Positions 1 to 44,477 of a DNA stretch of 64,000 bases are shown here, piece by piece; position 1 is the first letter of the stretch, and each line of letters opens with the position of its first letter. Both the position numbers and the translations under genes were made by a program. The stretch comes from Bacteroidetes bacterium UBA7662. Its GTDB lineage: Bacteria; Bacteroidota; Bacteroidia; UBA7662. The stretch covers positions 21,956 to 85,955 of the forward strand of contig DLHS01000016.1 of assembly GCA_002483345.1 (NCBI GenBank), given 5' to 3'. The notes beneath the pieces were generated by a model, which was given only the letters and a program-made list of their open reading frames with translations, did not search any database and was not told the DNA's origin.

Positions 1-671
1 TGGGGTTCGGACGTGCCAATAACCTGGGTGCCTCCACTGCCCGGGGTGATTATTTATTTTTTCTCAATCCGGATACCGAACTGTTGTCGCCAGTACCGGC
101 CCTGCTAAAGGCATTGCTGGAGCAAGATGCCTACAGCCAGGTGGGCGTTGCCGGGGTGAGCATCGTCAATGAATTTGAAAAAGCAGATGTAGCGGCCGGG
201 AATTTCCCGACACCCGCTACCTTGTTGCAGGAGCTTTTTCCTGCCCGATTGTTCCCCTATACCCTCCGGACAGCGCCCTTGTCGGAAAATGTGGTATCGG
301 TAGATTATGTTTCGGGGGCTGATTTATTCTTCCGCCGATTTGTTTTCGAACAAGCCGGCGGCTTTGACCCCGACTTCTTTTTGTACTACGAAGAAACGGA
401 ACTGCAATACCGGGTAGCAAAAATGGGCTATCAGCGGGTTCTGCTGACCGATGCCCGGCTCAAACATTTGTGCGGAACGCCCGACCACAAAGTATCGGAC
501 CGGAAAATCCGGATATTTGAAACCAGCCGTCTGCTGTTCCACCGGAAATGTTACGGCCCGGCAGGTGGTCTCTGGGCCCGTATCTGGCTGGTGTTGTTTT
601 ACGGCAGCCGCTTGCTGACGGGTGGTCCGCGACATTATTTAACCGGAATTAAAACCGCTTTTCAAAGCTGA
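1..671 (+). CDS. Glycosyltransferase family 2, 5'-truncated by the window edge
   Basis: Frame 3 is open from nt 3. The translation contains GFGRANNLGASTARGDYLFFLNPDTEL, a GT2 DxD-region motif. The C-terminal part matches GT2 C-terminal regions. The stop overlaps the next start (ATGA). Confidence 0.75.
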   Translation, partial: GFGRANNLGASTARGDYLFFLNPDTELLSPVPALLKALLEQDAYSQVGVAGVSIVNEFEKADVAAGNFPTPATLLQELFPARLFPYTLRTAPLSENVVSVDYVSGADLFFRRFVFEQAGGFDPDFFLYYEETELQYRVAKMGYQRVLLTDARLKHLCGTPDHKVSDRKIRIFETSRLLFHRKCYGPAGGLWARIWLVLFYGSRLLTGGPRHYLTGIKTAFQS

Positions 672-1597
672 TGCCTTTTTTTAGCGTTGTCATACCCCTC
701 TATAACAAAGCCTCCTGGATTGGAGCCACCCTTGACAGTGTGCTGGGGCAATCATTTCAGGATTTCGAATTGCTGGTGATCAACAACGGCAGCACCGATG
801 GCAGCGAACAGGTAGTTGAATCGTATCAGGATAACCGCATCCGGCTGTTTCACCAGGAAAATGGAGGGGTTTCCCGGGCCCGGAATGCAGGCATACTGGA
901 GGCAAAAGCCCATTTTATTGCCTTCCTGGATGCCGATGACCTGTGGGCACCTGCTTTTCTGGAACAGTTGCACCAACTCATACAGCAATATCCGGAAGCA
1001 ACGGCCTATGGTTGTCAGTATGCCTTCAGACAGAAGTATACAGACATACCGCCGCATCAGCCCCTCCTTTCGGGTGAAAAAATGCAGTTGATTGACAATT
1101 ATTTCGATCAGGTGGCTGCCGGAGATATGCTGCTGACTGCGTCATCCGTCTGCATTCCCAAAAAATGGTTTACGAAAGTTGGCCTGTTCCCGGAGGGGGA
1201 ACGGATAGGAGAAGATCAGGATATGTGGGCACGTCTGGCTCTGGCAGGCCCGCTGGCCTTTCATGGTAGTTGTGCTGCTTATTACAGGCAGGAGGTGGGC
1301 GGCATGGCCACTGCGGCCAGACCGGAGGCACAGCTCTGGCCATTTGTAGAGAGACTCTTGCATAAACTCCGTTCCGGCCGGATTCCACAAAATCTTGAAC
1401 CCTCGGTAAGGCGATATGCTGTCAGGCAATTACTCGGACAAGCCAGTCAGCTGGTGTTGGATGGTCAGCAAAAAGCTGCCGGCGTCCTGTTGGCAATACC
1501 GGAAGCCCGTTCGGGTGGAAAACGTTTCCTGTATTGGAAATTTGTGAATCAGCTCCCTGCCTTTTTGCTGTTTTTTATCAAAAAGAGACATGGTTGA
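671..1597 (+). CDS. Glycosyltransferase family 2
   Basis: Canonical GT2 N-terminus (VVIPLYNKASWIGATLDSVLGQSF...LLVINNGSTDGS...FLDADDLW). 308 aa, translationally coupled to both neighbours. Confidence 0.85.
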   Translation: MPFFSVVIPLYNKASWIGATLDSVLGQSFQDFELLVINNGSTDGSEQVVESYQDNRIRLFHQENGGVSRARNAGILEAKAHFIAFLDADDLWAPAFLEQLHQLIQQYPEATAYGCQYAFRQKYTDIPPHQPLLSGEKMQLIDNYFDQVAAGDMLLTASSVCIPKKWFTKVGLFPEGERIGEDQDMWARLALAGPLAFHGSCAAYYRQEVGGMATAARPEAQLWPFVERLLHKLRSGRIPQNLEPSVRRYAVRQLLGQASQLVLDGQQKAAGVLLAIPEARSGGKRFLYWKFVNQLPAFLLFFIKKRHG

Positions 1598-2402
1598 ATC
1601 AAAAAAGAAGGTGGATACCCTCGCCATTCTGGTCTGTTATGGGCAGGACTTCCGGCAATGCAGCAGCTGGCTTAGTTTACGGGTTGCAGCCGGAGCCCAA
1701 TTAGACTGGTTTGTGGCCGACAACAGCCCACACCCTGTTCTGCAGGACGAAGCCATCGTTTACAGGCATTACCCACACAATCCCGGCGTAAGTGTTGCTT
1801 ATCTGGAAGGGGCTGCATTTGCCAGAAATGAAGGGTACAGTTGGATATTATTATTGGATCAGGATACAAATTTCCCGGCAGAAAGCTGGCAGGCCTATCA
1901 GGAGGCACGTACGCAATGGCCTGATTATGCACTTTACAGCCCACAGCTTTGGTCTGCACAGAAAGGCATATCACCCGCACCGGCCAGATTCGGGAGGGCC
2001 TTTGCCAGTGAAAAGCTGCCCTCAGGGCCTTATTCGCTGGCAGCTTACAGCCCGATCAATGCAGGCATGTTGCTTTCGCTCGATGCTTATCTGGCCGTAG
2101 GTGGTCATGTGCCCAGTGTTTACCTCGACTTCAGCGATTATGCCTTTATCCGGAAATTCCGCAGGAAGTTCCCCAAGGCTGTTGCGCTCCCCCTTCGTAT
2201 CCATCACCACCTTTCGGGTACAGAAAAGAGAACAAAAGAGCAGGACTTTACCCGATTCGGCCATTACTGCCGTTGTGCCAAAGCATATGCCCGCGTTGGT
2301 GGTCCCCGTTTCTGGTTGTTTTTCTGGGCCTTTGCCCGGGCATTGCTGCTTGGTATCCGGCACCGCAGCTTCCGCTTTTTTGGTTTAATTTTAACCTCTT
2401 AA
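1590..2402 (+). CDS. GT2-like glycosyltransferase (rhamnosyltransferase-like)
   Basis: 270 aa. LAILVCYGQD...WILLLDQDTNFP resembles a GT2/WbbL-like DxD region. 8-nt overlap with the upstream gene. Confidence 0.55.
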   Translation: MVESKKKVDTLAILVCYGQDFRQCSSWLSLRVAAGAQLDWFVADNSPHPVLQDEAIVYRHYPHNPGVSVAYLEGAAFARNEGYSWILLLDQDTNFPAESWQAYQEARTQWPDYALYSPQLWSAQKGISPAPARFGRAFASEKLPSGPYSLAAYSPINAGMLLSLDAYLAVGGHVPSVYLDFSDYAFIRKFRRKFPKAVALPLRIHHHLSGTEKRTKEQDFTRFGHYCRCAKAYARVGGPRFWLFFWAFARALLLGIRHRSFRFFGLILTS

Positions 2403-2497
2403 CCCTTACTTTGAAGACAAAGACCTCTTTCTCCTGGCCCTTGCTCCTGTGTTGGCTGGTGCTGACAGAACTGGTGCTGGGTGGGGGTGGCCGCTGG

Positions 2498-3709
2498 ATG
2501 AGTATGGGACCACTCAGTCCACGCATGATACTGTTCGGGCTTGTCCAGCTTACAGTCCTTTATCAGCTGATAAGTGGCAAATGGAATTGGAAAATACCCT
2601 TTTTACCATTTTTAGCAGTTTTTTTCGGAATCACAACCTTCTCGGCCTTGTGGGGATGGCAACAGGGAGCCAGTCTGACAGCGGTGTTTACGGACGTCAA
2701 ACCCCTTCTATTCTGGGCAAACCTGGCATTTTTCGCTTACGTTTTTTCGGATTTAAGTCAGTTAAGCAACCTCCGGTTCCTGTTTAAGTGGACTACTTTC
2801 GGCTTGGCGGTGAGTTACCTGGCCTTATTACTTTTCTGGCAGCTGAATTGGATAGATGCGGAAAAAATGTACCGGCATCTCGCCCTGAACGAAGAGTTTT
2901 CCTTTCGGGGGAACCTGGGTTTTATGTATAAGGGTTTTGTGTTTTTACCTGTCGGCATGTTTTTCTGGTTACAGGAGAAGGGCTACCGCAAGTACTTTGT
3001 ACTTCTCCTGCTGTATCTGGCTGTATTATTCACCTTTACCCGTGGTTTTTGGGCCATATTATTTTTCATCCATATTTTTTATACGCTCGTTTACCGGCCC
3101 GGGAAATGGGTAAACTGGGTAGCTGCTGCCTTTATGCTGGTAAGTGTATATGCCGCCGGTTTATATGTGGCCAGTCAGCCCAAAGCCTATTTCAAAGGAC
3201 AGGAGGCAGGAGAGATTTTAAACAATGCAGAGAAGCTACAGCAGTCGTTGAGCCAGACGGAAAAGGAAATCAGTGGCGCCTTTAAGCAAGGGTTTGAACA
3301 CCGGGAAGCCTCCATACTCGATCGTTTCATACAGATTCGGCAGGTGGCAGAAGCTACCACCCCTCTTTCCCTTGTTATGGGTCACGGTTTCGGACATGGG
3401 ATTGCGAGCCGGCCGGTTCACATGGAAATAACCTATCTGGAGGTCTTCCACAAACAAGGTTTAGCAGGTCTTGGTCTTTGGATCTGGCTTTTCCTGGCTT
3501 TGGTTAAAAGATTTTACATTGCCATCGGGCGAAAAATCAGAGCCGTTGATGCCTCGTCAGACAGTTTTGTATTTTTTGCATCCGCTTGTTTTATGTTTGG
3601 TATTTCCTGCCTCAACCCGTTTATCAACGCTCCTATGGGGCTGGGCATGCTGGCACTCTCCCTTATCGTACTGGAAAAACTGAGCCAACAAAAAGAGACA
3701 GCCCTATGA
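2498..3709 (+). CDS. Wzy_C / O-antigen ligase-family membrane protein (polymerase or ligase)
   Basis: Polytopic membrane protein carrying an H-x-E-x-x-YLE...G-L-x-G motif (VHMEITYLEVFHKQGLAGLG) typical of the O-antigen ligase/Wzy_C domain. The track ORF begins at a TTG at 2273, overlapping the upstream gene by 130 nt, so the first ATG (2498) was chosen. The start is uncertain. Confidence 0.55.
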   Translation: MSMGPLSPRMILFGLVQLTVLYQLISGKWNWKIPFLPFLAVFFGITTFSALWGWQQGASLTAVFTDVKPLLFWANLAFFAYVFSDLSQLSNLRFLFKWTTFGLAVSYLALLLFWQLNWIDAEKMYRHLALNEEFSFRGNLGFMYKGFVFLPVGMFFWLQEKGYRKYFVLLLLYLAVLFTFTRGFWAILFFIHIFYTLVYRPGKWVNWVAAAFMLVSVYAAGLYVASQPKAYFKGQEAGEILNNAEKLQQSLSQTEKEISGAFKQGFEHREASILDRFIQIRQVAEATTPLSLVMGHGFGHGIASRPVHMEITYLEVFHKQGLAGLGLWIWLFLALVKRFYIAIGRKIRAVDASSDSFVFFASACFMFGISCLNPFINAPMGLGMLALSLIVLEKLSQQKETAL

Positions 3710-4419
3710 CCCGAGTAAGTGTTTGTATGCCTGTTTACAACGGCGCTGAGTGGCTGGCGGAACAACTCGATTCCATTCTGCAGCAATTGGGGCCGGAAGA
3801 TGAGATTGTCGTCAATGATGACGGTTCCCGCGACAACAGCATGCAGTTGCTGAGCAGCTATCAGCAACGAGACCCGCGCGTGCGAATACTACCTGCCAGG
3901 AAGTTCGGGAATGTGGTCTACAATGTAGAGTACCTCCTGCAACAGGCTAGGGGAAGTTTTATTTTACTGAGTGACCAGGATGATATCTGGGCACCGGAAA
4001 AGGTGACCCGGATGTTGGCGGCCTTGTCGGATCATACGCTGGTAGTGCATGATTGTGCGGTAGTGGATGCCGGGAAAACACTGCTTCACCCTTCTTTTTA
4101 TGAGATGCACGGCAGTGGCCCTGGCAGATTTAAAAATATCGTCCGCAATAGCTATCTGGGCTGCTGCATGGGATTCCGGAAGGAGTTGCTTCAAACGGCG
4201 CTTCCTTTTCCGGAAAAACTGGATATGCACGATATCTGGCTGGGAAACATAGCGGCATGGTGGTATGAGCTGGTATTTATTAACGATAGACTCCTTTCCT
4301 ACCGACGGCATGGCGGCAATGCTTCTTCTGCCTCAGAAGCCAGCAAATACAATCGTTTGCAGCAAATTGGCATGCGCCTGAAGCTGGTGGCCCAACTTTT
4401 TAAAAGATATTTACGCTGA
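3706..4419 (+). CDS. Glycosyltransferase family 2
   Basis: The ATG at 3706 overlaps the upstream stop. MTRVSVCMPVYNGAEWL...VVNDDGSRDNS...LSDQDDIW is a GT2 signature. Confidence 0.8.
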   Translation: MTRVSVCMPVYNGAEWLAEQLDSILQQLGPEDEIVVNDDGSRDNSMQLLSSYQQRDPRVRILPARKFGNVVYNVEYLLQQARGSFILLSDQDDIWAPEKVTRMLAALSDHTLVVHDCAVVDAGKTLLHPSFYEMHGSGPGRFKNIVRNSYLGCCMGFRKELLQTALPFPEKLDMHDIWLGNIAAWWYELVFINDRLLSYRRHGGNASSASEASKYNRLQQIGMRLKLVAQLFKRYLR

Positions 4420-5174
4420 TGCGTGTCTCCATCATTACCGTTTGCTTTAACAGTGCCGGAACCATTGCCGATACTTTCCGGAGTGTGGCCGCTCAAACCC
4501 ACGCCGGTACAGAACACATTGTAGTCGACGGAGGTAGCACTGACGGAACGGTTACGCTTATACAAGAATATGCAGCTGCTCAGCCTTCCGGTCGTGTAAA
4601 ATGGGTCAGTGAGGCAGACAAGGGCCTGTACGATGCCATGAACAAGGGGCTTGCATTGTGTACGGGAGAGGTGGCAGGATTTCTGAATGCAGATGATTTT
4701 TATGCTTATCCCGGCGCTATATCCGATCTGGTTGCCACTTTCCAGGCAGAAAAAACGGCCTGTGTTTACACAGACCTCCATTATGTGGATGCGCAACAGA
4801 CCGGCAAGGTTACCCGTAAGTGGAAAGCCGGGAAATATCAAAAAAATGCCTTTTTATGGGGCTGGATGCCTCCCCATCCTACCTTTTATGTCAAAACTGC
4901 CGTGTACAAAAGGCTGGGTGGTTACCGGCTTGATTTAAAAAGTGCTGCTGACTACGAGCTGATGTTGCGTTTTTTGCATAAAAACAAGATTACAGCAGCC
5001 TATCTGCCCAAAACCACGGTTTTGATGCGCGCAGGAGGGGTAAGCAATGCCAGCGTACAAAACAGGCTTATCGCCAATCAAATGGATCGCAAGGCATGGG
5101 TAGTGAATGGCCTGAAACCCTACTTTTTCACCCTTTGGGTAAAGCCATTGCGGAAAATCGGCCAGTTTTTTTAG
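4419..5174 (+). CDS. Glycosyltransferase family 2
   Basis: MRVSIITVCFNSAGTI...VVDGGSTDGT...LNADDFY is a GT2 signature. ATGA overlap with the upstream gene. Confidence 0.8.
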   Translation: MRVSIITVCFNSAGTIADTFRSVAAQTHAGTEHIVVDGGSTDGTVTLIQEYAAAQPSGRVKWVSEADKGLYDAMNKGLALCTGEVAGFLNADDFYAYPGAISDLVATFQAEKTACVYTDLHYVDAQQTGKVTRKWKAGKYQKNAFLWGWMPPHPTFYVKTAVYKRLGGYRLDLKSAADYELMLRFLHKNKITAAYLPKTTVLMRAGGVSNASVQNRLIANQMDRKAWVVNGLKPYFFTLWVKPLRKIGQFF

Positions 5175-5300
5175 ACAACGAGATTTCGAGAGGCGAGAAG
5201 CGAGACTTTTGCGCCTGCGGCGCAGTCCATAGCCGATAACCACACTGCCGCACAGCGGCAGTAAAAAGTCTCGCTTCTCGCCTCTCGAAATCTCGCTGTC
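5174..5300. repeat. Nested-palindromic MITE/REP-like intergenic element, copy 1
   Basis: 37-nt terminal inverted repeats (5174-5210 and 5264-5300, 1 mismatch) flank a 53-bp core with two GC-rich sub-hairpins (gcgcctgcggcgc; ctgccgcacagcggcag). The left arm begins at the stop codon of the GT2 gene. The 31-nt core of the arm (gagatttcgagaggcgagaRgcgagactttt) recurs at 59610-59640. Confidence 0.7.
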
Positions 5301-5348
5301 TAAGAAAAGAAACCGCTGCGAAGCAGCTCCATTATTTATATTTGAGGT

Positions 5349-6644
5349 ATGATTAACCTGATCCTTTCAGGAGGCAGCGGTACCCGTTTGTGGCCTCTTT
5401 CGCGCAAGTTTATGCCCAAGCAGTTTTATCCGCTTCTGGGTGAAAAAACGTTGTTTGAGCGAACAGTTGAGCGCAATGCTTCCACTTGCAAAGCTTACTG
5501 GATTGTTACCAATCAGGATCAGGCTTTGCTTGCCGAAGCACAAATGGGAGCACATGAAGCCCGCTTCATCCTGGAGCCTGTAGGCAGAAATACCGCACCC
5601 GCCATTGCGTTGGTTTGCCATCTCCTTGAGCCGGATACAGTGGTACTCGTGAGTGCCAGCGATCACCTGATTAAAAAGCAAGCTGCTTACGAAAAAGTGG
5701 TAGCCCGTGCTTCCAAACTGGCTGAAGAAGGGTTTCTGGTCACCTTCGGCATCAAACCTTCCTACGCTGAAACCGGCTATGGCTACATTGAGTCAAAAGG
5801 GGAGGAAGTTTTATCGTTCAAGGAAAAACCGGATGCGGTAACGGCGGCACAATACCTTGCCAGCGGTAATTATCTCTGGAACAGTGGCATGTTCTGTTTC
5901 AAAGCCGGAACCTTTCTGGAAGAGCTGAAGAAACATGCCCCCGAGGTATACCACAAATCAAAAGAAGCCCTGAAAAATCATCCTGCAGAGGACGAAATAA
6001 TCGAAATTACTCCGGAGGCCATGCAGGCCATACCGGAAATCAGCATCGATTATGGTGTCATGGAAAAAAGTGATAAGGTGCGGGTGGTGCCTGCCGACAT
6101 CGGCTGGAGTGATCTGGGCAGTTTTGATGCCCTCTACGAAGAACTGCCCCATGATGAGCATGGAAATACGGAAGCGGAAATCACCAACTTCCTGGGAGCA
6201 AAAAATAACCTTGTTTTCAACCGCTCCGACAGCCGGTTGGTACTGCTGGATGTGGAAGACCTGCTGGTGGTAAAAACGCAGACCGCGACCCTCATCGGCC
6301 GCAGAGGACACTCACAAAACGTAAAAAAAGCAGTCGACTTCCTGAAAAAAGAAAACGCCTGGGAACTCAACACCCATGAGAGCCAGGTACTGAGTTATGG
6401 CATTCAAAGGGTCATCAGCTCAACGCCCGAATACGAGCTGGTGGAATTATTTCTGCATCCGGGAGAGACCATTCATACCCATCCGGGTGAACATATTTCC
6501 ATTCAGTTGATTTCAGGCAGTCTGCAACTCGATGAACGTCAACTTAAGTTGGGTGAAAGTATTTCAGCACAAAAAAATGCGCTTAAGTTATTTAACCCTG
6601 ATTTAGAGCAACCCTGCTTGCTGCTTATTACTCATTTGCATTGA
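5349..6644 (+). CDS. manC: Mannose-1-phosphate guanylyltransferase (GDP-mannose pyrophosphorylase) with C-terminal cupin
   Basis: N-terminal LILSGGSGTRLWPLSR nucleotidyltransferase motif. C-terminal cupin region (LHPGETIHTHPGEHISIQ). 431 aa. Confidence 0.85.
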   Translation: MINLILSGGSGTRLWPLSRKFMPKQFYPLLGEKTLFERTVERNASTCKAYWIVTNQDQALLAEAQMGAHEARFILEPVGRNTAPAIALVCHLLEPDTVVLVSASDHLIKKQAAYEKVVARASKLAEEGFLVTFGIKPSYAETGYGYIESKGEEVLSFKEKPDAVTAAQYLASGNYLWNSGMFCFKAGTFLEELKKHAPEVYHKSKEALKNHPAEDEIIEITPEAMQAIPEISIDYGVMEKSDKVRVVPADIGWSDLGSFDALYEELPHDEHGNTEAEITNFLGAKNNLVFNRSDSRLVLLDVEDLLVVKTQTATLIGRRGHSQNVKKAVDFLKKENAWELNTHESQVLSYGIQRVISSTPEYELVELFLHPGETIHTHPGEHISIQLISGSLQLDERQLKLGESISAQKNALKLFNPDLEQPCLLLITHLH

Positions 6645-8218
6645 TGAGAGTATTCCTGCTTTTTCTTTTTTCGCTCCTGACCTTCATAGGTTATGGTCAG
6701 CACATTCCTTCAAACTTCAGCCTGAACCGATTCTGGCAGCTGGAATTTGAAAGACAGAATAGTTTGCTGGAAAATAAAGCGCATACATCCATCCGCCCCT
6801 GGATAAACAACAGTCAGCAGCTGGCACCTTCGGGAGACAGCCTGGGAACCGGTGAGAAATCATGGCTCTATCGTAAGGTGTACCGGGAACATCTGGTTGA
6901 CTACAGAAAAGAAGACTGGAGCATTCAGCTGGATCCGTTGATGGATCTGCAGCTGGGTGGTTCACAGGGAGGTTCGTTAGCAGTAAATACCCGCGGGGTA
7001 CAGCTACAGGGTAATATCGGCACCCGTTTCGCCTTCTACTCCAGCTTTTTCGAAACCCAGGCCACTCATCCTGATCATGTTACCAATAAAATCCGGAGCA
7101 CACGGGTGGCTCCTGCACAGGGTAATGTGCGTGATTTTGGCAGCAGGGGATTTGATTATGCGCAATCTGTGGCATACGTTTCCTTCTCCCCCAATAAACA
7201 CTTCAACTTCCAGTTCGGACATGACAGACATTTCATTGGCGATGGTTACAGGTCGCTCTTGCTGTCAGATGCCTCCTTCCCACATCCTTACTTCAGAATA
7301 CTGACCGATGTAGGGCCCTTTCAGTATATGTATCTGGTCAGTCAGTATACCGATTTAGTGGCTCCCCGGCTCTCAAATCAGTTGGGTAACCGGCAGAAAT
7401 ACAGTGCCATGGGATATCTTGACTGGCGCATAGGCAAACGGTTTACCCTGGGGTTCTTTCAGGCTGTGGTCTGGCAGGCGGATGATTCTACAGGCAGAAG
7501 AGGTCTGGATGTAAACTACCTGAATCCCATTATATTCCTGCGCCCTGTAGAATTCAGCCTGGGTTCTGAAGGCAATATGCTGCTTGGTCTGAATGCCAAA
7601 CTCAAACTCAGCGATCATCACCTGTTGTACGGGCAGTTGATCCTCGATGAATTCGATTTTTCAGAACTCGTAGCTCAAAACGGCTATTGGGCCAATAAAT
7701 ATGGCTTTCAACTGGGTTATAAAGGCTTTGATATGTTTGGTATCCCCCACCTGGCCTTGCAGTCGGAGGTCAATACGGTTCGCCCCTATACTTACAGTCA
7801 TTGGACAAGTCTGACCAATTATGGTCAATACAATGAACCTTTGGCCCATCCTTTCGGGGCCAATTTTATAGAGTGGGTAAACTTCATTAATTATCGCAAA
7901 GACCGGTACTACGGTCAGTTGCAGCTGATGGCAGCTACCATCGGATACAATGAAGCAGGCAGCAGCGCTGGTCAGGATATTTTCAGCAGCTATTATACCC
8001 GAAGCAGGGACTACGGGAACACCATTGGTCAGGGTAATACCACCAATATTTTTCTTGCTGGTTTGAAAGGGGGGTATATCCTCAACACCCAAACCAATTT
8101 AAGACTTGAGCTCAGTCTTCACCACCGGCAATCACGTCAGGCGTCGGGCACACAAAATGATCAGTGGATAATGCTCGGCCTCGTAAGCAGCATCCGGAAT
8201 CTGTATTACGATTTCTAA
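6641..8218 (+). CDS. Secreted outer-membrane beta-barrel protein, possibly Wzi-like capsule-assembly protein
   Basis: Signal peptide (MMRVFLLFLFSLLTFIGYGQ). 525 aa, rich in Gly/Tyr/Asn beta-strand repeats, with a C-terminal aromatic terminus (YYDF) typical of OM beta-barrels. The size and locus context fit Wzi-family proteins. The family assignment is inference. Confidence 0.4.
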   Translation: MMRVFLLFLFSLLTFIGYGQHIPSNFSLNRFWQLEFERQNSLLENKAHTSIRPWINNSQQLAPSGDSLGTGEKSWLYRKVYREHLVDYRKEDWSIQLDPLMDLQLGGSQGGSLAVNTRGVQLQGNIGTRFAFYSSFFETQATHPDHVTNKIRSTRVAPAQGNVRDFGSRGFDYAQSVAYVSFSPNKHFNFQFGHDRHFIGDGYRSLLLSDASFPHPYFRILTDVGPFQYMYLVSQYTDLVAPRLSNQLGNRQKYSAMGYLDWRIGKRFTLGFFQAVVWQADDSTGRRGLDVNYLNPIIFLRPVEFSLGSEGNMLLGLNAKLKLSDHHLLYGQLILDEFDFSELVAQNGYWANKYGFQLGYKGFDMFGIPHLALQSEVNTVRPYTYSHWTSLTNYGQYNEPLAHPFGANFIEWVNFINYRKDRYYGQLQLMAATIGYNEAGSSAGQDIFSSYYTRSRDYGNTIGQGNTTNIFLAGLKGGYILNTQTNLRLELSLHHRQSRQASGTQNDQWIMLGLVSSIRNLYYDF

Positions 8219-8223
8219 ACGGG

Positions 8224-9471
8224 CTAACGGTTCGGGGCACTCACTTTATCAGGCAAATTCAAATAAAGGAGAGAAGAAAAAATACCAAAGAACAAAACAC
8301 CCCTGTGCCAGAAGAGAATGGTTTCCGTCTGGAGGCAAAGAAAAATAAAGGCGAGAAATGCTACAAAAAGGAGATTTTTTGTCTTGAAACCCCTTCTTAT
8401 GCCGTAAACAAAAATTCCCAGAAGCAGAAAAGACTGAATAAGACCACCATAAAGAGCTGCTTCTACAAACTGGTTATGACTATTGTATTGTCCCACAAGA
8501 CCTGTCTGAAATCCCTTTTGGGTATACACTTCCCTGAGTGCGTCCTTCCCATCTCCGGCACCTGTACCAAACCATAAATTATCCTGTATTACTTCTGCAG
8601 CGCACTCCCATTGGGCCAAACGAACAGTAATGCCATTGTAGTCAGCTGCCTGATAGGTTTTAATATCATAATCCAGACTTTCAGTCACCTCGAGCAATCT
8701 TAGTTGTACCTGGGAGGGTAAAAAACGGAAACTGAGTACGAACAGCAAGACTATGCCCAATAAAACAGCCACCGGCTTCCACCGCTTCAGTGTTATTGCC
8801 TGATAAACAACGGCCAGCCCCAGGGTAAGCAGGGCAGCCAGCATGGTCATTCTGCCATTAAGCATCACCAGACAAGCGAGCAGGCAGATTCCGGCAGTGA
8901 TACTCCCTGTATTTACCCGCCAGTGTTTATCCATCCAGAATTTGACAAGGATACCGAGACTGACTATCAGCTGCAAGCTGAAATACCCCGGATGCATAAT
9001 CGGCTCGGATAAACCCGTGTAGAAAAAGTAAGCGTAATATATGGTCTCATCTATCACCGGTGAATGATAAACGCGCCAGGCTGCGAAGACAAATGCACCG
9101 GCAACTGCCGCCAGCGATGACAGCAACTGTGCTTTGAATAACCACCTTAAATCCGCCTGATCAGGTTTCCTGATTAACAACAGACCAGGAAGCAACACCA
9201 ATAGTAACTGAGTCCCCAGATTCGAGCCGGCATCTGCCCAATTTTGAGTCCATAACAAGCTCAAAAGCTGCCAGCAGAAATAAAACAACAGTCCTCTGAA
9301 CCAGCCATTGTGCCTTAATTCCCGCCAATTATTTGACTTCCAGCCAACCAAAACAAGGAGTATCAGCACTGCCAAAGCATAGCTGCTAAACCAAACCGGT
9401 AAAAACTGCGAAACGATTAAAAGCATCCAGCCGGCACGTATTGGCCAACCCATCGATTCGCTATTCAGCAT
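8224..9471 (-). CDS. Wzy_C / O-antigen ligase-family membrane protein
   Basis: Polytopic membrane protein with a YNSHNQFVEAALYGGLIQ motif (H-N-x-F-x-E...G) characteristic of O-antigen ligase/Wzy_C. It is a lone minus-strand gene inside the plus block. Confidence 0.55.
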   Translation of the reverse strand: MLNSESMGWPIRAGWMLLIVSQFLPVWFSSYALAVLILLVLVGWKSNNWRELRHNGWFRGLLFYFCWQLLSLLWTQNWADAGSNLGTQLLLVLLPGLLLIRKPDQADLRWLFKAQLLSSLAAVAGAFVFAAWRVYHSPVIDETIYYAYFFYTGLSEPIMHPGYFSLQLIVSLGILVKFWMDKHWRVNTGSITAGICLLACLVMLNGRMTMLAALLTLGLAVVYQAITLKRWKPVAVLLGIVLLFVLSFRFLPSQVQLRLLEVTESLDYDIKTYQAADYNGITVRLAQWECAAEVIQDNLWFGTGAGDGKDALREVYTQKGFQTGLVGQYNSHNQFVEAALYGGLIQSFLLLGIFVYGIRRGFKTKNLLFVAFLAFIFLCLQTETILFWHRGVLFFGIFSSLLYLNLPDKVSAPNR

Positions 9472-9532
9472 TTTAGGTTATTTTGCGGTGCCAAAACGTT
9501 GTTCTCAACCATATCAGCTCAAGATACGAAGG

Positions 9533-9925
9533 ATGCAAATTTTACAAGGAGACCTTTTCAAATTCATTAAGTTCGGAGTAGTTGGCTTTTCAGGTCTTCT
9601 GATTGACTTTGCCTTGACCTGGGTACTTAAAGAAAAGGCTCGGATTTCTCCTTATGCTGCCAATGCCGCAGGTTTTTTGGTCGCAGCGAGTTCTAACTGG
9701 TATCTCAACCGTATCTGGTCGTTTGAAAGTCAGAACAGCGAGTTGGTTGAGGAGTATTTTGCCTTTTTAGTTGTCTCTCTGCTTGGTTTGGTCATCAATA
9801 CAGCCGCTTTATTTGTAGGAATAAAAAAATTCAGACTCAATTTCTACCTGGCCAAAGCCATCGCCATCGCCATTACCACCTTCTGGAATTTTTTCGCCAA
9901 TTACTACTATACCTTTGCCGTATGA
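9533..9925 (+). CDS. GtrA-family membrane protein (putative polyprenyl-phosphate-sugar flippase subunit)
   Basis: About 130 aa, about 4 TM, KFGVVGFSGLLIDFALTWVL...NWYLNRIWSFES typical of GtrA. ATG at 9533 preferred over the upstream GTG at 9488. Confidence 0.65.
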   Translation: MQILQGDLFKFIKFGVVGFSGLLIDFALTWVLKEKARISPYAANAAGFLVAASSNWYLNRIWSFESQNSELVEEYFAFLVVSLLGLVINTAALFVGIKKFRLNFYLAKAIAIAITTFWNFFANYYYTFAV

Positions 9926-11343
9926 AGCGGCCGGGTATATATCAACTGATTCTTGCGACTACCCTTGCCGGATTTTTATTACCTAATTTATTTACTACCG
10001 GCATTTTCGGAGATGGATTAATTTATGCCGTCATTTCAAGAAATCTCTCGGAGGGACTAGGCAGTTGGTGGAATCTCTATTACAGTACCTATATTTTCTC
10101 GCCCTTTGCAGAACATCCTCCGCTCCTTTTCTGGGTTGAGTCGATATGGTTCAGGATACTGGGAGATTACCACTTTACCGAGAAAAGCTTCTCTGTATTA
10201 CTTGCAGCAGGCATGATTATCAGTCTTCGTTTTTTCTGGATAAGGATAGCCAGAAATCAGACAGAAAAACAAGCCTGGTGGTTTCCGGTACTGCTATGGA
10301 TTCTGGTCCCGACCATTCATTGGGCGTATCCCAACAATATGCTTGAAAACCTGATGGTTCTTTTTACCAGTTGGGCAGTATGGTCAGGATTTTATAAGCC
10401 TTCAGGCCAAAAGGCGCTCCTGGTAGGTGTGCTTGTTTTTTTAGCCTTTCTTACCAAGGGATTGGTCGGACTATTCCCGTTAGCCGTTTTCGGCATCCGT
10501 TGGTTAAGCCTCCGGGAGGATACCCTTCGTAAAGCACTTTCATGGACCTCTTTGGCGCTGTTTGGCTTTGTATTGTGTATGGCCATCAGTTTAATACCTG
10601 AATCGGCCCGGAATTATTGGATGCAGTATTTTGATGTACAGTTGCTGGCCACCCTGAGGGGCGAACGGCTGGTACAGGATCATGTGGTTGATCTTCCCCG
10701 TTACTATCTGCTCACAAGGCTCTTTACAGAGTTGATTAATCCGCTGCTTTTAACGGGGCTCCTGCTGCTGGGTACCCGCAGGTTCCGGAAAAAAGGAGCT
10801 GTACCTGCGTTAGCGCACGGCTACATCCTGTTCTTTGCACTGGTAGCATGCAGCGCTACTTTACCCTTGCTGATTTCTCCCAAGCAACACTCCTTTTACC
10901 TGATACCTGCCATTCCCTGGTTTATACTGGCTTTGTCGAAAGGTGCCGGGCCTTTTGTTTTTGATATCCTGGCACAATGGCAAAGCCGGCAACTGAGTTA
11001 TAAAATAAGTTACCTTTTTTTCAGTGGTCTTTTTGTGGCCGCCCTGGTCATATGTGGATGGCGGGCGAACCAACCTGGCCGGGATGCAGATTTGATGTCG
11101 GCAGTAGATGTCATAGCACATACAACAGGCTCACACCAGATAGGAATACCCCATTCCCTGATCAGGCACCATAGTTTACATGCCTATTTTCAGCGAAATC
11201 ATCACATCAGTCTCTCCCCCTATGACAGCACAGCAGGTTATTGGATAACTGAAAAGGATAGTATTCCTCCTCCCGGATATAAAACTATGGATATCGGCAT
11301 CTCCGGTTACGACTTGCACCAGCTTAGCGGGCAGCATCGTTAA
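9922..11343 (+). CDS. ArnT/PMT-like GT-C fold membrane glycosyltransferase (GT83/GT39-like)
   Basis: 473 aa polytopic protein. N-terminal GDGLIYAVISRNLSEG resembles the ArnT PDETRYAEISREMLASG motif. FLTKGLVGLFPLAV resembles ArnT VMTKGFLALAVPVL. Overlaps the GtrA stop. Confidence 0.6.
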   Translation: MKRPGIYQLILATTLAGFLLPNLFTTGIFGDGLIYAVISRNLSEGLGSWWNLYYSTYIFSPFAEHPPLLFWVESIWFRILGDYHFTEKSFSVLLAAGMIISLRFFWIRIARNQTEKQAWWFPVLLWILVPTIHWAYPNNMLENLMVLFTSWAVWSGFYKPSGQKALLVGVLVFLAFLTKGLVGLFPLAVFGIRWLSLREDTLRKALSWTSLALFGFVLCMAISLIPESARNYWMQYFDVQLLATLRGERLVQDHVVDLPRYYLLTRLFTELINPLLLTGLLLLGTRRFRKKGAVPALAHGYILFFALVACSATLPLLISPKQHSFYLIPAIPWFILALSKGAGPFVFDILAQWQSRQLSYKISYLFFSGLFVAALVICGWRANQPGRDADLMSAVDVIAHTTGSHQIGIPHSLIRHHSLHAYFQRNHHISLSPYDSTAGYWITEKDSIPPPGYKTMDIGISGYDLHQLSGQHR

Positions 11344-11370
11344 AAACACCTGCGGGGTGCAAAGTTTTTG

Positions 11371-12453
11371 CTATGCTTCCTGATCGTTAACAGGATGATA
11401 GACATGTCTGGACTTTTGCCATTTTTTGATCAGAAACGGAATCTGACTCAGGACTAATGCAGAAAGAAGACTAATGCCCAATATTTGAATGGGCCGTAAA
11501 TCACGAAGCAGCCAGGCTAGTAAGATGAAACCTGCGTTGGCGGCATATAAGGTGAAGGCTGCCTGGCTATGCGACATGCCCAGATCAAGCAGGCAATGGT
11601 GGATATGGTTGCGGTCGGCAGAAAATGGCGATCGTTTGTGCATAATCCTGACAGTGAATACCCTCAAGGTATCGAAAAGAGGAATAATCAACACATTAAA
11701 GGCATATACTGCGCCCGCGATACTGAAAAAGTAATTCGGTTCAAAGGTTCTGCTCAGTTGTATAAATCGTACACTGATGATGGCAATTAAATACCCCAAA
11801 ACCAGCGAACCCGAATCACCCATAAATATGCTGGCATTCCTGAAATTAAACCGTAAAAATGCCAGCAGGGAGCCGATCATGGTCAGACACAAAATGAAAA
11901 AAACCTGATCATTCATGCGGTAAAACCAATACCCGAAAGTTGACAATACAATCACCCCGATGCCTCCTGCCAGTCCGTTGATGCCATCAATGAGGTTAAA
12001 GCCATTCATGATGGTAAGAATACTCAGGGTTGAAAAAACGATTGACTCCACATAATTCAAATCATGAATGCCGAGTAGTCCATAAAGATTATCAATCCTG
12101 ATTTCACCTTGTATGACTACAATCAGGGTAGCAATAATCTGGGCAAGAAGCTTCTTCCAGGCTACCAGCGGGAATAAATCATCTTTGATTCCTATGACAA
12201 ACAGTATCATCAGGGCCGACAATATTGCACCAAACTTAGGGACAGTCATTCCTGACGTCCAGAAAACAAATGAGAAGAAAAACCCGACAAAAAGCGCTAA
12301 ACCACCCAGCGTAGGAATCCGGGTCAGGTGGGCCTTCCTGTGATTTGGCTCGTCGTATAATTTTTTGATTCTCGCCAGATTAATAATCGCAGGAACACTG
12401 AGATAGGTGATCAGCCAAGCCGTAAAAAAAGACAGGATATAAATCAGGGTCAT
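11371..12453 (-). CDS. wecA: UDP-HexNAc:undecaprenyl-phosphate HexNAc-1-phosphate transferase (WecA/WbpL/TagO family, GT4 MraY-like)
   Basis: MraY/WecA motifs DDLFPLVAWKKL and NLIDGINGLAGG. 360 aa, 10-11 TM. Confidence 0.85.
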   Translation of the reverse strand: MTLIYILSFFTAWLITYLSVPAIINLARIKKLYDEPNHRKAHLTRIPTLGGLALFVGFFFSFVFWTSGMTVPKFGAILSALMILFVIGIKDDLFPLVAWKKLLAQIIATLIVVIQGEIRIDNLYGLLGIHDLNYVESIVFSTLSILTIMNGFNLIDGINGLAGGIGVIVLSTFGYWFYRMNDQVFFILCLTMIGSLLAFLRFNFRNASIFMGDSGSLVLGYLIAIISVRFIQLSRTFEPNYFFSIAGAVYAFNVLIIPLFDTLRVFTVRIMHKRSPFSADRNHIHHCLLDLGMSHSQAAFTLYAANAGFILLAWLLRDLRPIQILGISLLSALVLSQIPFLIKKWQKSRHVYHPVNDQEA

Positions 12454-14545: not shown

Positions 14546-14709
14546 TGCTTTACAAAGGTAAACTTCAAACCGACTTATACAGCATAAAAGTAAGAAGCGG
14601 CCGAGGCAGGAAAACTAACCAAATTGATATTAAGTCATGATTAATTTATACCAAGAACGTGAATATATCGCCGTCTGGACATACCCTTAACAGGGCATTT
14701 TTGGTCTGA

Positions 14710-15849
14710 TCAACCAGGGAAACAAGCCTTAACTGCCTTCACAACCCGGTCAAGGTCGTGGGTAGTCAGGTTAGATCCTGATGGCAGACACAAGCCCTTC
14801 TCAAAGAGTTTTGCTGATACTTCGCCACCATAATAAGGAGCAGTTTCGAAAACCGGTTGCATATGCATGGGCTTCCAAAGCGGTCTCGATTCAATGTTTT
14901 CTTTTTCAAGCGCCAACCGGATATTTTCACGGCTTATGCCTCCGGTAACAGCCGGGTCGACCAGAATAGTTGTAAGCCAGCGGTTTGTGAAACTCCCGGC
15001 TGGTTCAGTCACAAAAGAAATTCCTTCGATATCCCGGAAGGCATTTACATAATAGGCATAATTAGCACGACGCTGTTGAACCCTATCGCTGAGAACAAGC
15101 ATCTGCCCGCGACCAATACCTGCGCAAACATTACTCATACGATAGTTATACCCAATCTCACTGTGCTGATAATGGGGTGCAGCATCTCTTGCCTGTGTAG
15201 CCAGGAAACGAGCCTTTTCCACCAGTTTCGCATCGGCAGATATCAAGGCGCCACCACCGGAGGTAGTGATAATTTTGTTTCCATTAAAACTGAGCACACC
15301 CATTTTTCCGAATGTCCCGCAGGCCTGATGCTGGTAGGTGGACCCCAGTGCTTCTGCCGCATCTTCTACGATATCAATGCCGAATTCATTGGCAATCGCC
15401 GTGATTTCATCCATTTTTGCAGGCATCCCATAGAGGTGAACAGGGATAATAGCCTTTGGCTTTTTGCCTTTGGCGATGCGATCTAAAATAGCTTCCCTCA
15501 AAACCTTTGGATCCATATTCCAGGTATCTGGTTCTGAATCGATAAAAACCGGCAAAGCTCCGAGATAAGCAATCGGATTTGCAGAGGCTGAAAATGTAAA
15601 ACTCTGGCAAATTACTTCATCACCAGCCTTTACTCCCAGCAGAATTAATGCAAGGTGGATGGCCGAAGTCCCGCTTGAAAGCGCAGCAGCACTGGGTGAT
15701 TTTGTAAAATCACACAAATCCTGCTCAAATCCGTTTACATGCGGACCCAACGGCGCTATCCAGTTGGTATCAAAGGCATCTTTGACAAATTTAAACTCCT
15801 CCAGTCCCATATGGGGTGATGAAAGCCAGATTTTTGGTGATTCAGACAT
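14710..15849 (-). CDS. DegT/DnrJ/EryC1 PLP-dependent sugar aminotransferase (PglE-like, UDP-4-amino-sugar)
   Basis: WLSSPHMGLEEFKFVKDAF...LSSGTSAIHLALILLGVKAGDEVICQSFTF is a DegT-family signature. ATG at 15849 chosen (MSESPK). Confidence 0.85.
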   Translation of the reverse strand: MSESPKIWLSSPHMGLEEFKFVKDAFDTNWIAPLGPHVNGFEQDLCDFTKSPSAAALSSGTSAIHLALILLGVKAGDEVICQSFTFSASANPIAYLGALPVFIDSEPDTWNMDPKVLREAILDRIAKGKKPKAIIPVHLYGMPAKMDEITAIANEFGIDIVEDAAEALGSTYQHQACGTFGKMGVLSFNGNKIITTSGGGALISADAKLVEKARFLATQARDAAPHYQHSEIGYNYRMSNVCAGIGRGQMLVLSDRVQQRRANYAYYVNAFRDIEGISFVTEPAGSFTNRWLTTILVDPAVTGGISRENIRLALEKENIESRPLWKPMHMQPVFETAPYYGGEVSAKLFEKGLCLPSGSNLTTHDLDRVVKAVKACFPG

Positions 15850-16222
15850 ACTTATATTGAAATTTAAAAGCAAGAAAAACAACCACGGCGAAAATGGGTG
15901 TGGTGATTAACCGGTGTAAGGTGGCGCAAAAATTTTGTAGTGATTCAAATTCTAAACTAAAGATATAGAGTATGAAGAGTAATAAATAGAAAACAATGCT
16001 GATAAGTGTCAACAACCATGTCATTTTATGACCCAACATGAGAACGGCATATATAAGATAACTTCCCCATGCAATCAGAAGTACCCTGGCGAAAAGCACA
16101 CTATGTGGGTAAGTGCGAAAGAGAAAACTCCAATCCGGAATCAGGGAGAGTGCCTGCACTCCATAACTCATGATAAACAAGAATATGGCTAAACAAACTT
16201 TAAACAGCCTGCTCCTTAACAT
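15842..16222 (-). CDS. Small 4-TM membrane protein, putative exosortase-F-associated protein
   Basis: 126 aa, very hydrophobic. Tightly coupled (23-nt overlap) to the putative XrtF gene, a pairing characteristic of XrtF systems. The assignment is by context and size. Confidence 0.4.
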   Translation of the reverse strand: MLRSRLFKVCLAIFLFIMSYGVQALSLIPDWSFLFRTYPHSVLFARVLLIAWGSYLIYAVLMLGHKMTWLLTLISIVFYLLLFILYIFSLEFESLQNFCATLHRLITTPIFAVVVFLAFKFQYKYV

Positions 16223-21778: not shown

Positions 21779-22905
21779 ATACTGGGCTTTTCAAGGTATA
21801 AATTAAGGTAGGTCTTGGCAATTTGAGTCCATGAGAATGGTGCGACCGCCTGAACAGCTTCCCTACTTGCCGTTTCGAAATTGTCAGCTATTTTTTTGAT
21901 AGCTTCAATACTCTCGTTCATATTGTTTGGTTGTACCGGAATTGCAAAGCTACTCTTTTCAAAATAACCATCTATTCCCTGCCCTGCAGTATGTATAACA
22001 GGTAAACCCTGACTCAGCGCCTCCAAATAAACCAAACCAAATGTTTCAAGCTTACTGATCATGACAAAAATATCATGTTCTCCATAAAGCGCCCGCATGG
22101 CAGTGGCTCCTTCAACCTTTCCGACAAATTTCACAAAACTAAAGTCTTCTTGCTTTAAAGCCTTTAAAACACTTTCATGACCATCTCCGCCCCCTCCGGC
22201 AAGCGTGAGTGTTACAGGACGTTCTCCAGATAGTGCTTTTATCACGCTAAGAAGAAGTAAAATGTTTTTATTGAAGGTAAAATCACCTACGTACAATATC
22301 CTCAATGGATTATGGGGTACAGGCCGGGATTCCTGATTTTCAAACCAATCAGGAGTTAATCCGTTTGGTATCACAGTCGCATTCAAAATACGCTCCTTCA
22401 GTTGCCCGGCAATATATTTATCCGCAACCTGCTTCCGATACGACGGTGTAACAAATATGCACTGCCTGGCATTTGACAGAATATTTTGTCCATGTCCTCT
22501 CAGATGAATCATATATTTAAAAAACATATTTACATCTGTATTCCTGACTGCTGTAATATATGGGATTGAAAATTGCTGCTTTAATTTCAAGGCAACACCC
22601 CCGTCACTGAATAAGAAGTGAGCATGGATGATGTCTATTCCTTTTATTTCCACTTTGGACAGAACATCCTCATAAATGGTATTGATTTTTGATTTGTAAA
22701 GTATACGGTGTTTTGGCTCAAGAATATGGGCATAAATAACAACTGTATCCGGTACATTAGGGATATCGTACTTCCCAACTTCTGCTGCTGTCCTGACAGG
22801 TACATAAATGGTTTGACGGATTCCCATTTGTGCAAGCGACAGAAAAAGTTCTTTGTACAGCTTTTGTCTGGAATAATCGGAGCACAAATGAAGCACATGT
22901 ATCAT
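21775..22905 (-). CDS. Glycosyltransferase family 4
   Basis: 376 aa GT-B protein. Overlapping start and stop with neighbours. Confidence 0.75.
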   Translation of the reverse strand: MIHVLHLCSDYSRQKLYKELFLSLAQMGIRQTIYVPVRTAAEVGKYDIPNVPDTVVIYAHILEPKHRILYKSKINTIYEDVLSKVEIKGIDIIHAHFLFSDGGVALKLKQQFSIPYITAVRNTDVNMFFKYMIHLRGHGQNILSNARQCIFVTPSYRKQVADKYIAGQLKERILNATVIPNGLTPDWFENQESRPVPHNPLRILYVGDFTFNKNILLLLSVIKALSGERPVTLTLAGGGGDGHESVLKALKQEDFSFVKFVGKVEGATAMRALYGEHDIFVMISKLETFGLVYLEALSQGLPVIHTAGQGIDGYFEKSSFAIPVQPNNMNESIEAIKKIADNFETASREAVQAVAPFSWTQIAKTYLNLYLEKPSI

Positions 22906-24032: not shown

Positions 24033-24784
24033 AGCGAATTTAGATTTGCAATTTCATCCTGAGTGGGGTAGTTTATCAAAACAGCCCTGTGTTTTCCTTT
24101 ATATACAAAGAAGCTGCCAGCTGCCACTGAAGAAGCTTTCCCAATTTTGAGTGCATCAGCAATGTGAGAAATATTACCTGCCCCGCCACTGGCTACAATT
24201 GGCACATTTACGGCATTGGCAACACTTTTAGTAAGCTCCAGATCAAAACCAGACATACTTCCTTCCTTATCAACAGACTGAATAATGATTTCTCCTACTC
24301 CGGCTGCAACTACCTGTCTGGCAAAATCTTCCGGTGTCCATTTGTGTTTAACGGTACCGCTTTTGCTGTACACCTGATAGGAACCAAAAAAAGACTTTTT
24401 GGCATCTATGGAGACTACGATGCTTTGATTGCCATAAATGGAAGCGGCCTTTGCAAGTAATTCAAAATCGAAGGCAGCAGAATTCATAATAACTTTTTCA
24501 ACTCCCAGATCAAAAATCCTGCGTATCTGCTCAATATTCCTGATCCCCCCCCCATAACCAACCGGCATGAAACATTCACTTACAATATCTTTTATCCAGG
24601 CATAGTTGGGCTCTCTTTGTTGCGTACTGGCTTCAATATCACATAATACCAATTCATCAACCTCTTTTTCGTTGAATATCCTGACAGCATTGATCGGATC
24701 TCCAATGTAAACAGGGTTCTTGAAATTAACAGTCTTCACCAATCCCTTCCCTTTGAGCAACAATACCGGTATAAGTCTTATCAT
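24029..24784 (-). CDS. HisF-like imidazole glycerol phosphate synthase cyclase subunit paralog (WbuZ-like)
   Basis: MIRLIPVLLLKGKGLVKTVNF matches the HisF N-terminus. ATG at 24784 sits 2 nt after the hisH-like stop. The upstream in-frame Met at 24862 would overlap. Confidence 0.85.
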   Translation of the reverse strand: MIRLIPVLLLKGKGLVKTVNFKNPVYIGDPINAVRIFNEKEVDELVLCDIEASTQQREPNYAWIKDIVSECFMPVGYGGGIRNIEQIRRIFDLGVEKVIMNSAAFDFELLAKAASIYGNQSIVVSIDAKKSFFGSYQVYSKSGTVKHKWTPEDFARQVVAAGVGEIIIQSVDKEGSMSGFDLELTKSVANAVNVPIVASGGAGNISHIADALKIGKASSVAAGSFFVYKGKHRAVLINYPTQDEIANLNSL

Positions 24785-24786
24785 TT

Positions 24787-44377: not shown

Positions 44378-44477
44378 TTCAACCCTTGATCATGGGTTAT
44401 GCCCCGCCGGTATTCCCATTGCGTTCATCCATGCCGGGTGGTGCTTATTTTCACCTTGCGCTTCATTCTCCAAGGCC

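Follow-up and report, generated by a model that had tools for sequence, protein, structure and literature searches.

A GtrA/GT-C gene pair in a putatively exchangeable cassette of a Bacteroidota surface-polysaccharide region

Introduction

Enterobacterial gtr clusters combine conserved gtrA and gtrB genes with a type-specific glycosyltransferase of class C (GT-C). In this work we analyzed a gtrA-like gene that is followed by a GT-C gene (positions 9533 to 11343) in a 64,000-nucleotide stretch of contig DLHS01000016.1 from Bacteroidetes bacterium UBA7662; this whole stretch is called here the window. As in the GtrA/GtrB/Gtr(type) systems of Shigella flexneri, Salmonella and their phages, a GtrA-family protein accompanies a polytopic, type-specific GT-C in the context of O-antigen or polysaccharide genes, the transferase is much less conserved than GtrA, and together they appear as a variable and exchangeable module (for the framework, see PMC11127046). 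Unlike those systems, the window has no gtrB-type undecaprenyl-phosphate (Und-P) hexose synthase in the operon or in its 64 kb, gtrA precedes the GT-C gene with an ATGA overlap, a divergent Wzy_C-family gene belongs to the cassette, and the genes are on the chromosome, where neither phage nor mobile-element signs were detected.

In the Gram-positive CsbB/GtcA/YfhO systems of teichoic acid glycosylation a GtrA-family protein (GtcA) is also combined with a GT-C, and the gene of the GT2 synthase can lie at another genomic site; the GT-C family (YfhO), the acceptors (lipoteichoic and wall teichoic acids) and the envelope type differ from those of the window. ArnT (GT83; PDB 5EZM/5F15), the transferase of 4-amino-4-deoxy-L-arabinose to lipid A, shares with the window GT-C the GT-C-A architecture, a small C-terminal soluble domain, a conserved acidic residue after the first transmembrane (TM) helix and, where the PMT_2 domain begins, an E-x-P-P-L-like motif. 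The window GT-C has some 70 residues fewer than ArnT, and GtrA takes the place of ArnE/F as its partner. The protein O-mannosyltransferases (PMTs; GT39, Pmt1/2/4 and the actinobacterial Pmt) have in common with it the PMT_2 match, the GT-C fold and the 'family 39' naming at NCBI. Furthermore, the pentofuranose system of Citrobacter youngae O1/O2 (GT136) and the mycobacterial Rv3789/AftA system resemble our proposal in that a GT-C glycosylates after polymerisation, outside the cytoplasm, and AftA is among the fold matches of the window GT-C. In both of them the polyprenyl-phosphate sugar synthase is not a GtrB-type GT2 (PMC11127046). Unlike these two systems, the window lacks a synthase of the UbiA-like type dependent on phosphoribosyl pyrophosphate (PRPP), the phosphatase, DprE1/E2 and a MATE flippase, and its GT-C belongs to another family. 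A UbiA/PRPP-type pentofuranose pathway as described in PMC11127046 was ruled out for the window, which has no UbiA, DprE or MATE genes.

We consider it fairly probable that the pair performs a periplasmic, strain-specific decoration of the O-antigen or of another glycan linked to lipopolysaccharide (LPS), with a polyprenyl-phosphate sugar as donor and with the donor synthase encoded at an unlinked site. A decoration of this kind, on polysaccharide or LPS, had been suggested by an earlier reading of the letters alone (hereafter the sequence-only reading) and came out of our comparison as the best supported one.

Gene pair and protein families

The gtrA-like gene (9533..9925, plus strand) encodes 130 aa and the GT-C gene (9922..11343, plus strand) 473 aa, and the stop codon of the first overlaps the start codon of the second in the 4-bp ATGA at 9922..9925, as read from the sequence. 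Independent gene calls on an identical Logan contig gave the same 130-aa and 473-aa products. The two genes were adjacent in 13/13 close loci, and an abutting or overlapping layout was common to all related loci; the maintenance of the pair in 13 related loci indicates that these are real genes and not chance open reading frames. Judging from the sequence, the ATGA overlap is a translational coupling and the two genes form a predicted bicistronic operon. The surroundings are those of an LPS/polysaccharide region, with WecA, PglF/DegT/PglD/PglC, a Wzx/Wzy/Wza/Wzz locus and KdtA.

The 130-aa protein matched Pfam PF04138 along the full length of the model (1-117/117, E=7.7e-26), and four hydrophobic segments, predicted to be TM helices, can be read in its sequence. 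Its sole PDB sequence match was the TM domain (residues 250-373) of the dolichyl-phosphate mannose (Dol-P-Man) synthase (DPMS) of Pyrococcus furiosus (5MLZ, E=1.4e-4). By these matches the protein is assigned to the GtrA family (GtrA/DPMS-TM). Among the matches listed, all 296 GtrA homologues were stand-alone proteins of 121-146 aa, none of them with a fused GT2 domain. The identity was still 51-64% in other Bacteroidota orders, for example in metagenome-assembled genomes (MAGs) of Vicingaceae and Bacteroidales, and on sequence criteria we assign this GtrA to a conserved, stand-alone Bacteroidota orthogroup. The orthologue of the Bacteroidales MAG is an orphan amid housekeeping genes. That of the Vicingaceae MAG (L021, 8001-9894; 64% identity) convergently overlaps the gene of a 507-aa GT-C of the GT22/Alg9-like type (66.8 bits), whose hhalign probability to the window GT-C family was only 79%. 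To our knowledge, all characterised eukaryotic GT22 members use Dol-P-Man. The presence of a GtrA orthologue beside a GT-C of another family suggests that GtrA is a generic partner for varied GT-Cs, and the role proposed here is that of a flippase or membrane accessory for a polyprenyl-phosphate sugar.

The only Pfam match of the 473-aa protein was PF13231 PMT_2 (35.6 bits, gathering score 26.1), so that it is of the PMT_2 or 'GT39 / ArnT-family' type. An AlphaFold 2 model built from a 47-sequence alignment reached a pLDDT of 92.6 and a pTM of 0.91, with a small alpha/beta domain at the C-terminus (about residues 385-473). When the model was compared with the PDB by Foldseek, all 38 best matches were GT-C enzymes, headed by ArnT (5EZM/5F15; E~1e-7, top 8.5e-8; TM-score 0.63; 15% identity) and followed by AglB, STT3, AftA, ALG12, PglB, Pmt4 and DPY19; the fold matches to AglB, STT3 and PglB were weaker than that to ArnT (TM-score 0.44-0.50). 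On the strength of the model, we are confident that this protein is a membrane glycosyltransferase of the GT-C fold, ArnT-like. In this way, both the overlapping GtrA gene and the ArnT-like nature of the larger product, which the sequence-only reading had described, were borne out. It should be noted that the family profile retrieved no ArnT chain from the PDB sequences at E<1 (only spurious G-alpha matches appeared, with E about 0.3), and that no NCBIfam model, ArnT included, matched the protein; at the sequence level, the family appears remote from all solved structures.

The conservation was evaluated in 188 members with a median identity of 29% to the window GT-C. The most conserved positions were D31 (99%), H65-P-P-L (90-99%), E142 (98%), K179 (100%), R260 (93%), P315 (100%), Q322 (100%) and Y326 (99%), and Y35, N41 and W50 were also near-invariant. 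D31, in the motif F-x-D-G-L-I-Y, was kept in 187/188 members and G32 in 96%. According to the DSSP assignment on the model, D31 lies between TM1 (residues 6-19) and the first juxtamembrane helix (30-43). GT-C enzymes carry a catalytic acidic residue just after TM1 (summarised in PMC11127046), and by its position D31 would be the catalytic carboxylate.

Variable cassette

Every locus that extended far enough showed the same gene order, namely ManC, a secreted protein of ~500 aa, Wzy_C (minus strand), GtrA, GT-C, an optional WecA (minus strand) and a PglF-like dehydratase. In the window, the Wzy_C-family gene occupies 8224..9471 of the minus strand, divergent from gtrA, and encodes 415 aa (PF04932 at 61.9 bits). 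Compared with the window, the identities were 75-80% for ManC and 78-90% for PglF, 63-87% for GtrA, 42-65% for GT-C, 36-70% for Wzy_C and 51-69% for the 525-aa secreted protein. GtrA was more conserved than GT-C in all comparisons, a pattern that, by analogy, resembles that of a conserved gtrA with a serotype-specific gtrC.

The clearest case is that of locus L012 against L003, L007 and L019, with ManC 92-94% and PglF 89-90% identical while Wzy_C, GtrA and GT-C were only 43-48%, 64-66% and 52-53% identical, respectively. Over all pairs of loci, the pairwise identities of the latter three proteins correlated with one another at r=0.92-0.96 (Wzy_C with GT-C r=0.96, Wzy_C with GtrA r=0.94), and with those of ManC at 0.63-0.78. 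At the DNA level, L012 and L007 were collinear at 88% across ManC, the gene of the 525-aa protein and the 3' third of Wzy_C; the similarity was lost from inside Wzy_C to the end of GT-C, WecA included, and came back at PglF. This comparison points to a recombination breakpoint inside the Wzy_C gene. Such differential divergence in near-identical backgrounds indicates that Wzy_C, gtrA and GT-C make up an exchangeable, variable cassette within conserved flanks, which on sequence grounds appears to behave like serotype-determining genes. No tRNAs, no structured RNAs (Rfam) and no flanking direct repeats were detected around the cassette, and with these three signs missing a mobile-element or prophage origin was rejected.

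Proposed function and acceptor

The mechanism that we propose would start in the cytoplasm, where an unlinked synthase, possibly a short DPMS-like GT2, would load a monosaccharide onto undecaprenyl phosphate. GtrA would present or flip the lipid-linked sugar to the periplasmic face, and the GT-C, with an active site around D31, E142, K179, R260, Q322 and Y326, would move this one sugar to a glycan of the surface. As acceptor, the O-antigen or an LPS-linked polysaccharide handled by the adjacent Wzy_C ligase or polymerase is the most likely. As Wzy_C, gtrA and GT-C would be exchanged together, the GT-C would correspond to a 'serotype-specific GtrC' and GtrA to the more generic partner. The three-component logic of PMC11127046 accommodates a generic GtrA with varied GT-C partners and a synthase not linked to them in any of the contexts compared. 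With regard to the sugar, mannose comes to mind because ManC is conserved two genes upstream; this is only a guess.

Several points weigh against this proposal. The close loci all belong to one clade with extended synteny, so that little can be concluded from adjacency alone. ArnT, the nearest relative by structure, has lipid A and not a polysaccharide as its acceptor. A search of the window, and of 10 kb to each side in every close locus, yielded no polyprenyl-phosphate sugar synthase; the synthase, if any, would therefore be unlinked. In addition, the Wzy_C neighbour, which is probably an O-antigen ligase, could by its sequence be a ligase, a polymerase or an O-oligosaccharyltransferase (O-OTase) of the PglL type. 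PglL-type O-OTases share the Wzy_C domain, and a comparison of the Wzy_C protein (8224-9471) with PDB sequences, made to separate WaaL, Wzy and PglL, gave no match. Finally, direct flippase activity has never been demonstrated for GtrA proteins, the prototypes included (PMC11127046).

With respect to the acceptor, an ArnT-like reaction has to be weighed, in which the GT-C would move the sugar from the polyprenyl-phosphate donor onto a lipid A phosphate or a core residue. We regard it as possible and rather improbable. ArnT is the best structural match, relatives of the protein are named 'ArnT family glycosyltransferase' by NCBI, KdtA is encoded in the same window, and the co-variation with the ligase-like gene could reflect a shared dependence on the core structure. 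However, the likeness to ArnT is limited to the fold, with the low identity and the negative PDB and NCBIfam searches mentioned before, and ArnA/B/C/D-type genes are missing near the pair, as are any of ArnA/B/C/D/E/F type in the whole window. Suggestive neighbours do exist in the wider family, such as a PAP2 phosphatase adjoining the distant homologue of Larkinella soli, and an ArnA-C-terminal-like decarboxylase with a DPMS/ArnC-like GT2 beside another one; these contexts belong, though, to relatives with 26-28% identity and without a GtrA partner. Furthermore, close relatives usually have conserved lipid A and inner core, whereas the GT-C alleles are ~50% identical between genomes whose ManC are 93% identical, and such hypervariability argues against a conserved lipid A acceptor.

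If the decoration of an O-antigen or LPS-linked glycan is correct, the pair would represent one more periplasmic, strain-specific modification of a surface glycan, in which a compact block of a ligase-like gene, gtrA and a GT-C gene is swapped as one. No concept is changed by it; the combination of GtrA and GT-C is an ordinary kind of system. It would help in the annotation of O-antigen and serotype loci of Bacteroidota and in the prediction of antigenic variation. The analysis also brought to light a conserved stand-alone GtrA orthogroup across Bacteroidota, paired with different GT-C families.

Donor synthase and role of GtrA

Five GT2 genes are located near the pair, at 3-671 (cut by the window edge), 671-1597, 1590-2402, 3706-4419 and 4419-5174. 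The sequence-only reading had stated that none of them has the ArnC/GtrB architecture, and hydropathy, NCBIfam and PDB searches agreed with this. The hydropathy profiles revealed no TM helices in the five products, which in NCBIfam and the PDB best matched soluble, chain-extending GT2s (WcaA/WcaE/TuaG/EpsD, chondroitin synthase, GalT1); they did not match GtrB 5EKP or DPMS 5MLZ, and ArnC scored only 20-37 bits against a cutoff of 529. The other open reading frames of the window gave no GtrB/ArnC/DPMS or UbiA-type signature.

The reason adduced by that reading, that the five are of soluble type with ~240-310 aa, fared differently. In locus L010 (8001-11154), the gene of a distant homologue of the GT-C (28% identity) precedes that of an ArnA-C-terminal-like UDP-glucuronic acid decarboxylase (NF005998, 140 bits), and after the latter comes that of a DPMS-like GT2, two genes downstream of the GT-C. 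This GT2 has 244 aa and no TM domain, and its best PDB match was the catalytic domain of the Pyrococcus Dol-P-Man synthase (E=4.7e-13), with ArnC and GtrB next. From its sequence, the L010 gene set looks like a compact 'Und-P-pentose plus GT-C' pathway, and the proximity of the homologue to a DPMS-like GT2 ties the GT-C family to polyprenyl-phosphate-sugar donors. A short GT2 of this kind also shows that 'soluble-type, ~240 aa' is no exclusion criterion. Thus, the lack of TM helices and of synthase matches in the five GT2s stands, the argument from size and architecture does not, and the rejection of these GT2s as synthase is made on sequence grounds and not on architecture. As a more general outcome, an architecture filter for GtrB-like enzymes can miss a true synthase where short, TM-less DPMS-like GT2s stand beside a GT-C family. 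A tblastn search with the L010 GT2 gave no match in the window or in the close loci.

It should be noted that one and the same Pyrococcus synthase matches the window GtrA through its TM domain and the L010 GT2 through its catalytic domain. This opens another explanation, in which GtrA would be a membrane module or anchor split off from a DPMS-type synthase, or would serve as a scaffold for recruiting the GT-C, and the catalytic subunit would be a short soluble GT2 encoded elsewhere. In the single-chain Pyrococcus DPMS, the part that aligns with GtrA is the C-terminal four-TM domain; a 244-aa catalytic domain without TM helices is available beside a family member in L010; and the strong conservation of the GtrA orthogroup, whose members are often orphans, is as expected of a generic subunit. 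In Mycobacterium tuberculosis, a role in anchoring AftA has reportedly been proposed for Rv3789 in place of the flippase role. However, no GT2 of this sort turned up in the window or in the close loci, and no fused GT2 domain was seen in the 296 GtrA relatives among the matches listed. We therefore take this explanation as unlikely; moreover, it would alter only the role of GtrA and not the overall pathway.

Protein glycosylation and distribution of the family

The sequence-only reading had also put forward the GT-C as a candidate for the O-oligosaccharyltransferase of Bacteroidota. In such a case, the protein would be either a PMT-like O-mannosyltransferase using Und-P-mannose or the O-OTase of the general glycosylation system of this phylum. 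The Pfam match is PMT_2, Pmt4, STT3, PglB and AglB are among the significant fold matches, and a conserved ManC gene lies two genes away. In 2022 the identity of the Bacteroidetes O-OTase was stated to be unknown (PMC8729774), and our literature search found no identification later than that year. According to PMC11858162, a GtrA protein of Cytophaga hutchinsonii is reported to be involved in protein glycosylation and in the localisation of Cel9A, a type IX secretion system cargo.

The protein itself gives little support to this idea. The Pfam scan of the 473 aa detected no MIR domain and no STT3/PglB signature, the WWD motif (of the STT3-type WWDxG) is missing from the sequence, and loop 1 reads D31-G32 and not the PMT-type D-E. 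PMTs are also larger (>500-750 aa), and the match to Pmt4 was much weaker than that to ArnT. The bacterial O-OTases known so far (PglL, PilO, PglS) belong to the Wzy_C proteins and not to the ArnT-like GT-Cs, and in the locus studied here the Wzy_C domain is on the neighbour encoded at 8224-9471 and not on the GT-C. Furthermore, GtrA partners are associated with carriers of monosaccharides and not with undecaprenyl-diphosphate oligosaccharides. A hypervariable, exchangeable cassette is the opposite of what would be expected for a general enzyme that serves a conserved sequon and core glycan.

The distribution of the family bears on the same question. In an exhaustive HMMER search, the wider ~470-aa GT-C family comprised at least 1,682 clusters (50% identity) at E<=1e-30, with at least 150 full-length members below E 1e-128. 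It is thus large and includes members in Cytophagales and also in Bacteroidales, a point in favour of protein glycosylation; among the named relatives are a 'glycosyltransferase family 39 protein' (Odoribacter) and an 'ArnT family glycosyltransferase' (Larkinella). The close, GtrA-coupled subfamily (42-68% identity), on the contrary, is rare and confined to one narrow clade. With a profile made from a 15-sequence alignment it was found in only 3/185,579 GTDB species representatives, all of them MAGs, and in addition in 6 metagenome contigs and a few Logan/JGI contigs; a single-protein scan of the GTDB species representatives with the window GT-C gave no match. Five distant homologues (26-33% identity) had no GtrA within 8 kb and were found in unrelated contexts, with no signature of a glycosylation island.

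The narrow clade, the swapping of alleles at ~50% identity, the coupling to GtrA and the lack of PMT/STT3 hallmarks make the GT-C a poor O-OTase candidate, and we judge its action on proteins very unlikely. That the wider ~470-aa family as a whole consists of Bacteroidota protein O-glycosyltransferases (O-OTase or PMT-like), from which the GtrA-coupled cassette version would have branched off in one lineage, seems to us still more improbable. The finding would acquire far greater weight only if the GT-C family acted on proteins, which the evidence makes unlikely.

One distant homologue (33% identity) was observed in L013 (5707-14366) amid phage tail-fibre-like genes (PTL_trimer, Collar, Gp10_C), GT25, GT87 and a Y1 transposase; from its gene content, this region could be a prophage-borne or tail-like element with glycan-modifying genes. 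As to the source organism, its SucA is only ~62% identical to those of named genera (Roseivirga, Hymenobacter and other Cytophagales), and the lineage is a poorly sampled, Cytophagia-like one within Bacteroidota.

Flanking genes and other features of the window

The conserved left flank of the cassette starts with the ManC-like GDP-mannose pyrophosphorylase gene (5349..6644, plus strand; TIGR01479 GMP_PMI, 353 bits). Its stop is overlapped by the start of the gene of the 525-aa secreted protein (6641..8218, plus strand). This protein has a signal-like N-terminal segment and ends in YYDF, and no match was obtained for it in Pfam or NCBIfam. In L014 its homologue is relocated beside Wza (14625-16067), and a role as outer-membrane accessory in the export of polysaccharide is possible.

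Wzy_C and gtrA are separated by a divergent intergenic region of 61 bp (9472..9532), which presumably holds the promoters of both genes. A scan of this region for sigma-70-like promoters, a type of scan whose scope does not cover Bacteroidota promoters, gave one weak match on the minus strand (9508-9480), not above chance. Directly 3' of the GT-C stop, in the 27-bp gap that precedes the WecA-like gene, there is a terminator-like hairpin with a T-run (11347..11369, plus strand); the total of terminator-like sites in the region was not above the shuffled expectation, so that this one is supported by its position only.

The gene of the WecA-like polyprenyl-phosphate N-acetylhexosamine-1-phosphate transferase (11371..12453, minus strand) is convergent on the GT-C gene. 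Its product matched PF00953 (E=3.6e-37) and scored 152 bits with TIGR02380 WecA, which is under the cutoff. The gene was present in the window, L012/L018, L005, L015 and L016 and absent in L002, L003, L007, L014, L017 and L019; from this pattern it appears to be a variable accessory of some versions of the cassette. The block that contains the five GT2 genes and a Wzy-like gene (2273-3709; block at window 1-5174) seems to be kept or lost as a set with the WecA-like gene, as it was observed in the window and L012/L018 and not in L002, L003, L007, L014 and L019. This block encodes no Wzx or ABC transporter. The window contains three Wzy_C-family genes, at 2273-3709, 8224-9471 (minus strand) and 28994-30214, and only that at 8224-9471 is present in all related loci.

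Where the variable GT2 cluster meets ManC, there is a palindromic intergenic element (5166-5308) with 45-nt arms that are 96% complementary and a predicted hairpin of -96 kcal/mol. A second copy was found at 59600-59782, in the gap between the Na/sulfate symporter gene and sucB. The element is absent from the related loci and looks like a repetitive extragenic palindrome (REP) or a miniature inverted-repeat transposable element (MITE).

Inside the Wzx/Wzy polysaccharide locus, positions 22902-25404 (minus strand) encode an Asn-synthase/QueC-like ATP-pyrophosphatase followed by HisF-like and HisH-like proteins, a layout that resembles what we take to be an amidotransferase set of the WbuX/Y/Z type for acetamidino sugars. 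At its right end, the polysaccharide region contains Ugd (44399-45820), an epimerase-like or decarboxylase-like gene of the short-chain dehydrogenase/reductase type (46095-47078), a UpxY/NusG-like antiterminator gene (47891-48382) and the gene of the Kdo transferase KdtA (49240-50535). These four genes, between 44399 and 50535, tie the region to LPS and capsule biosynthesis.

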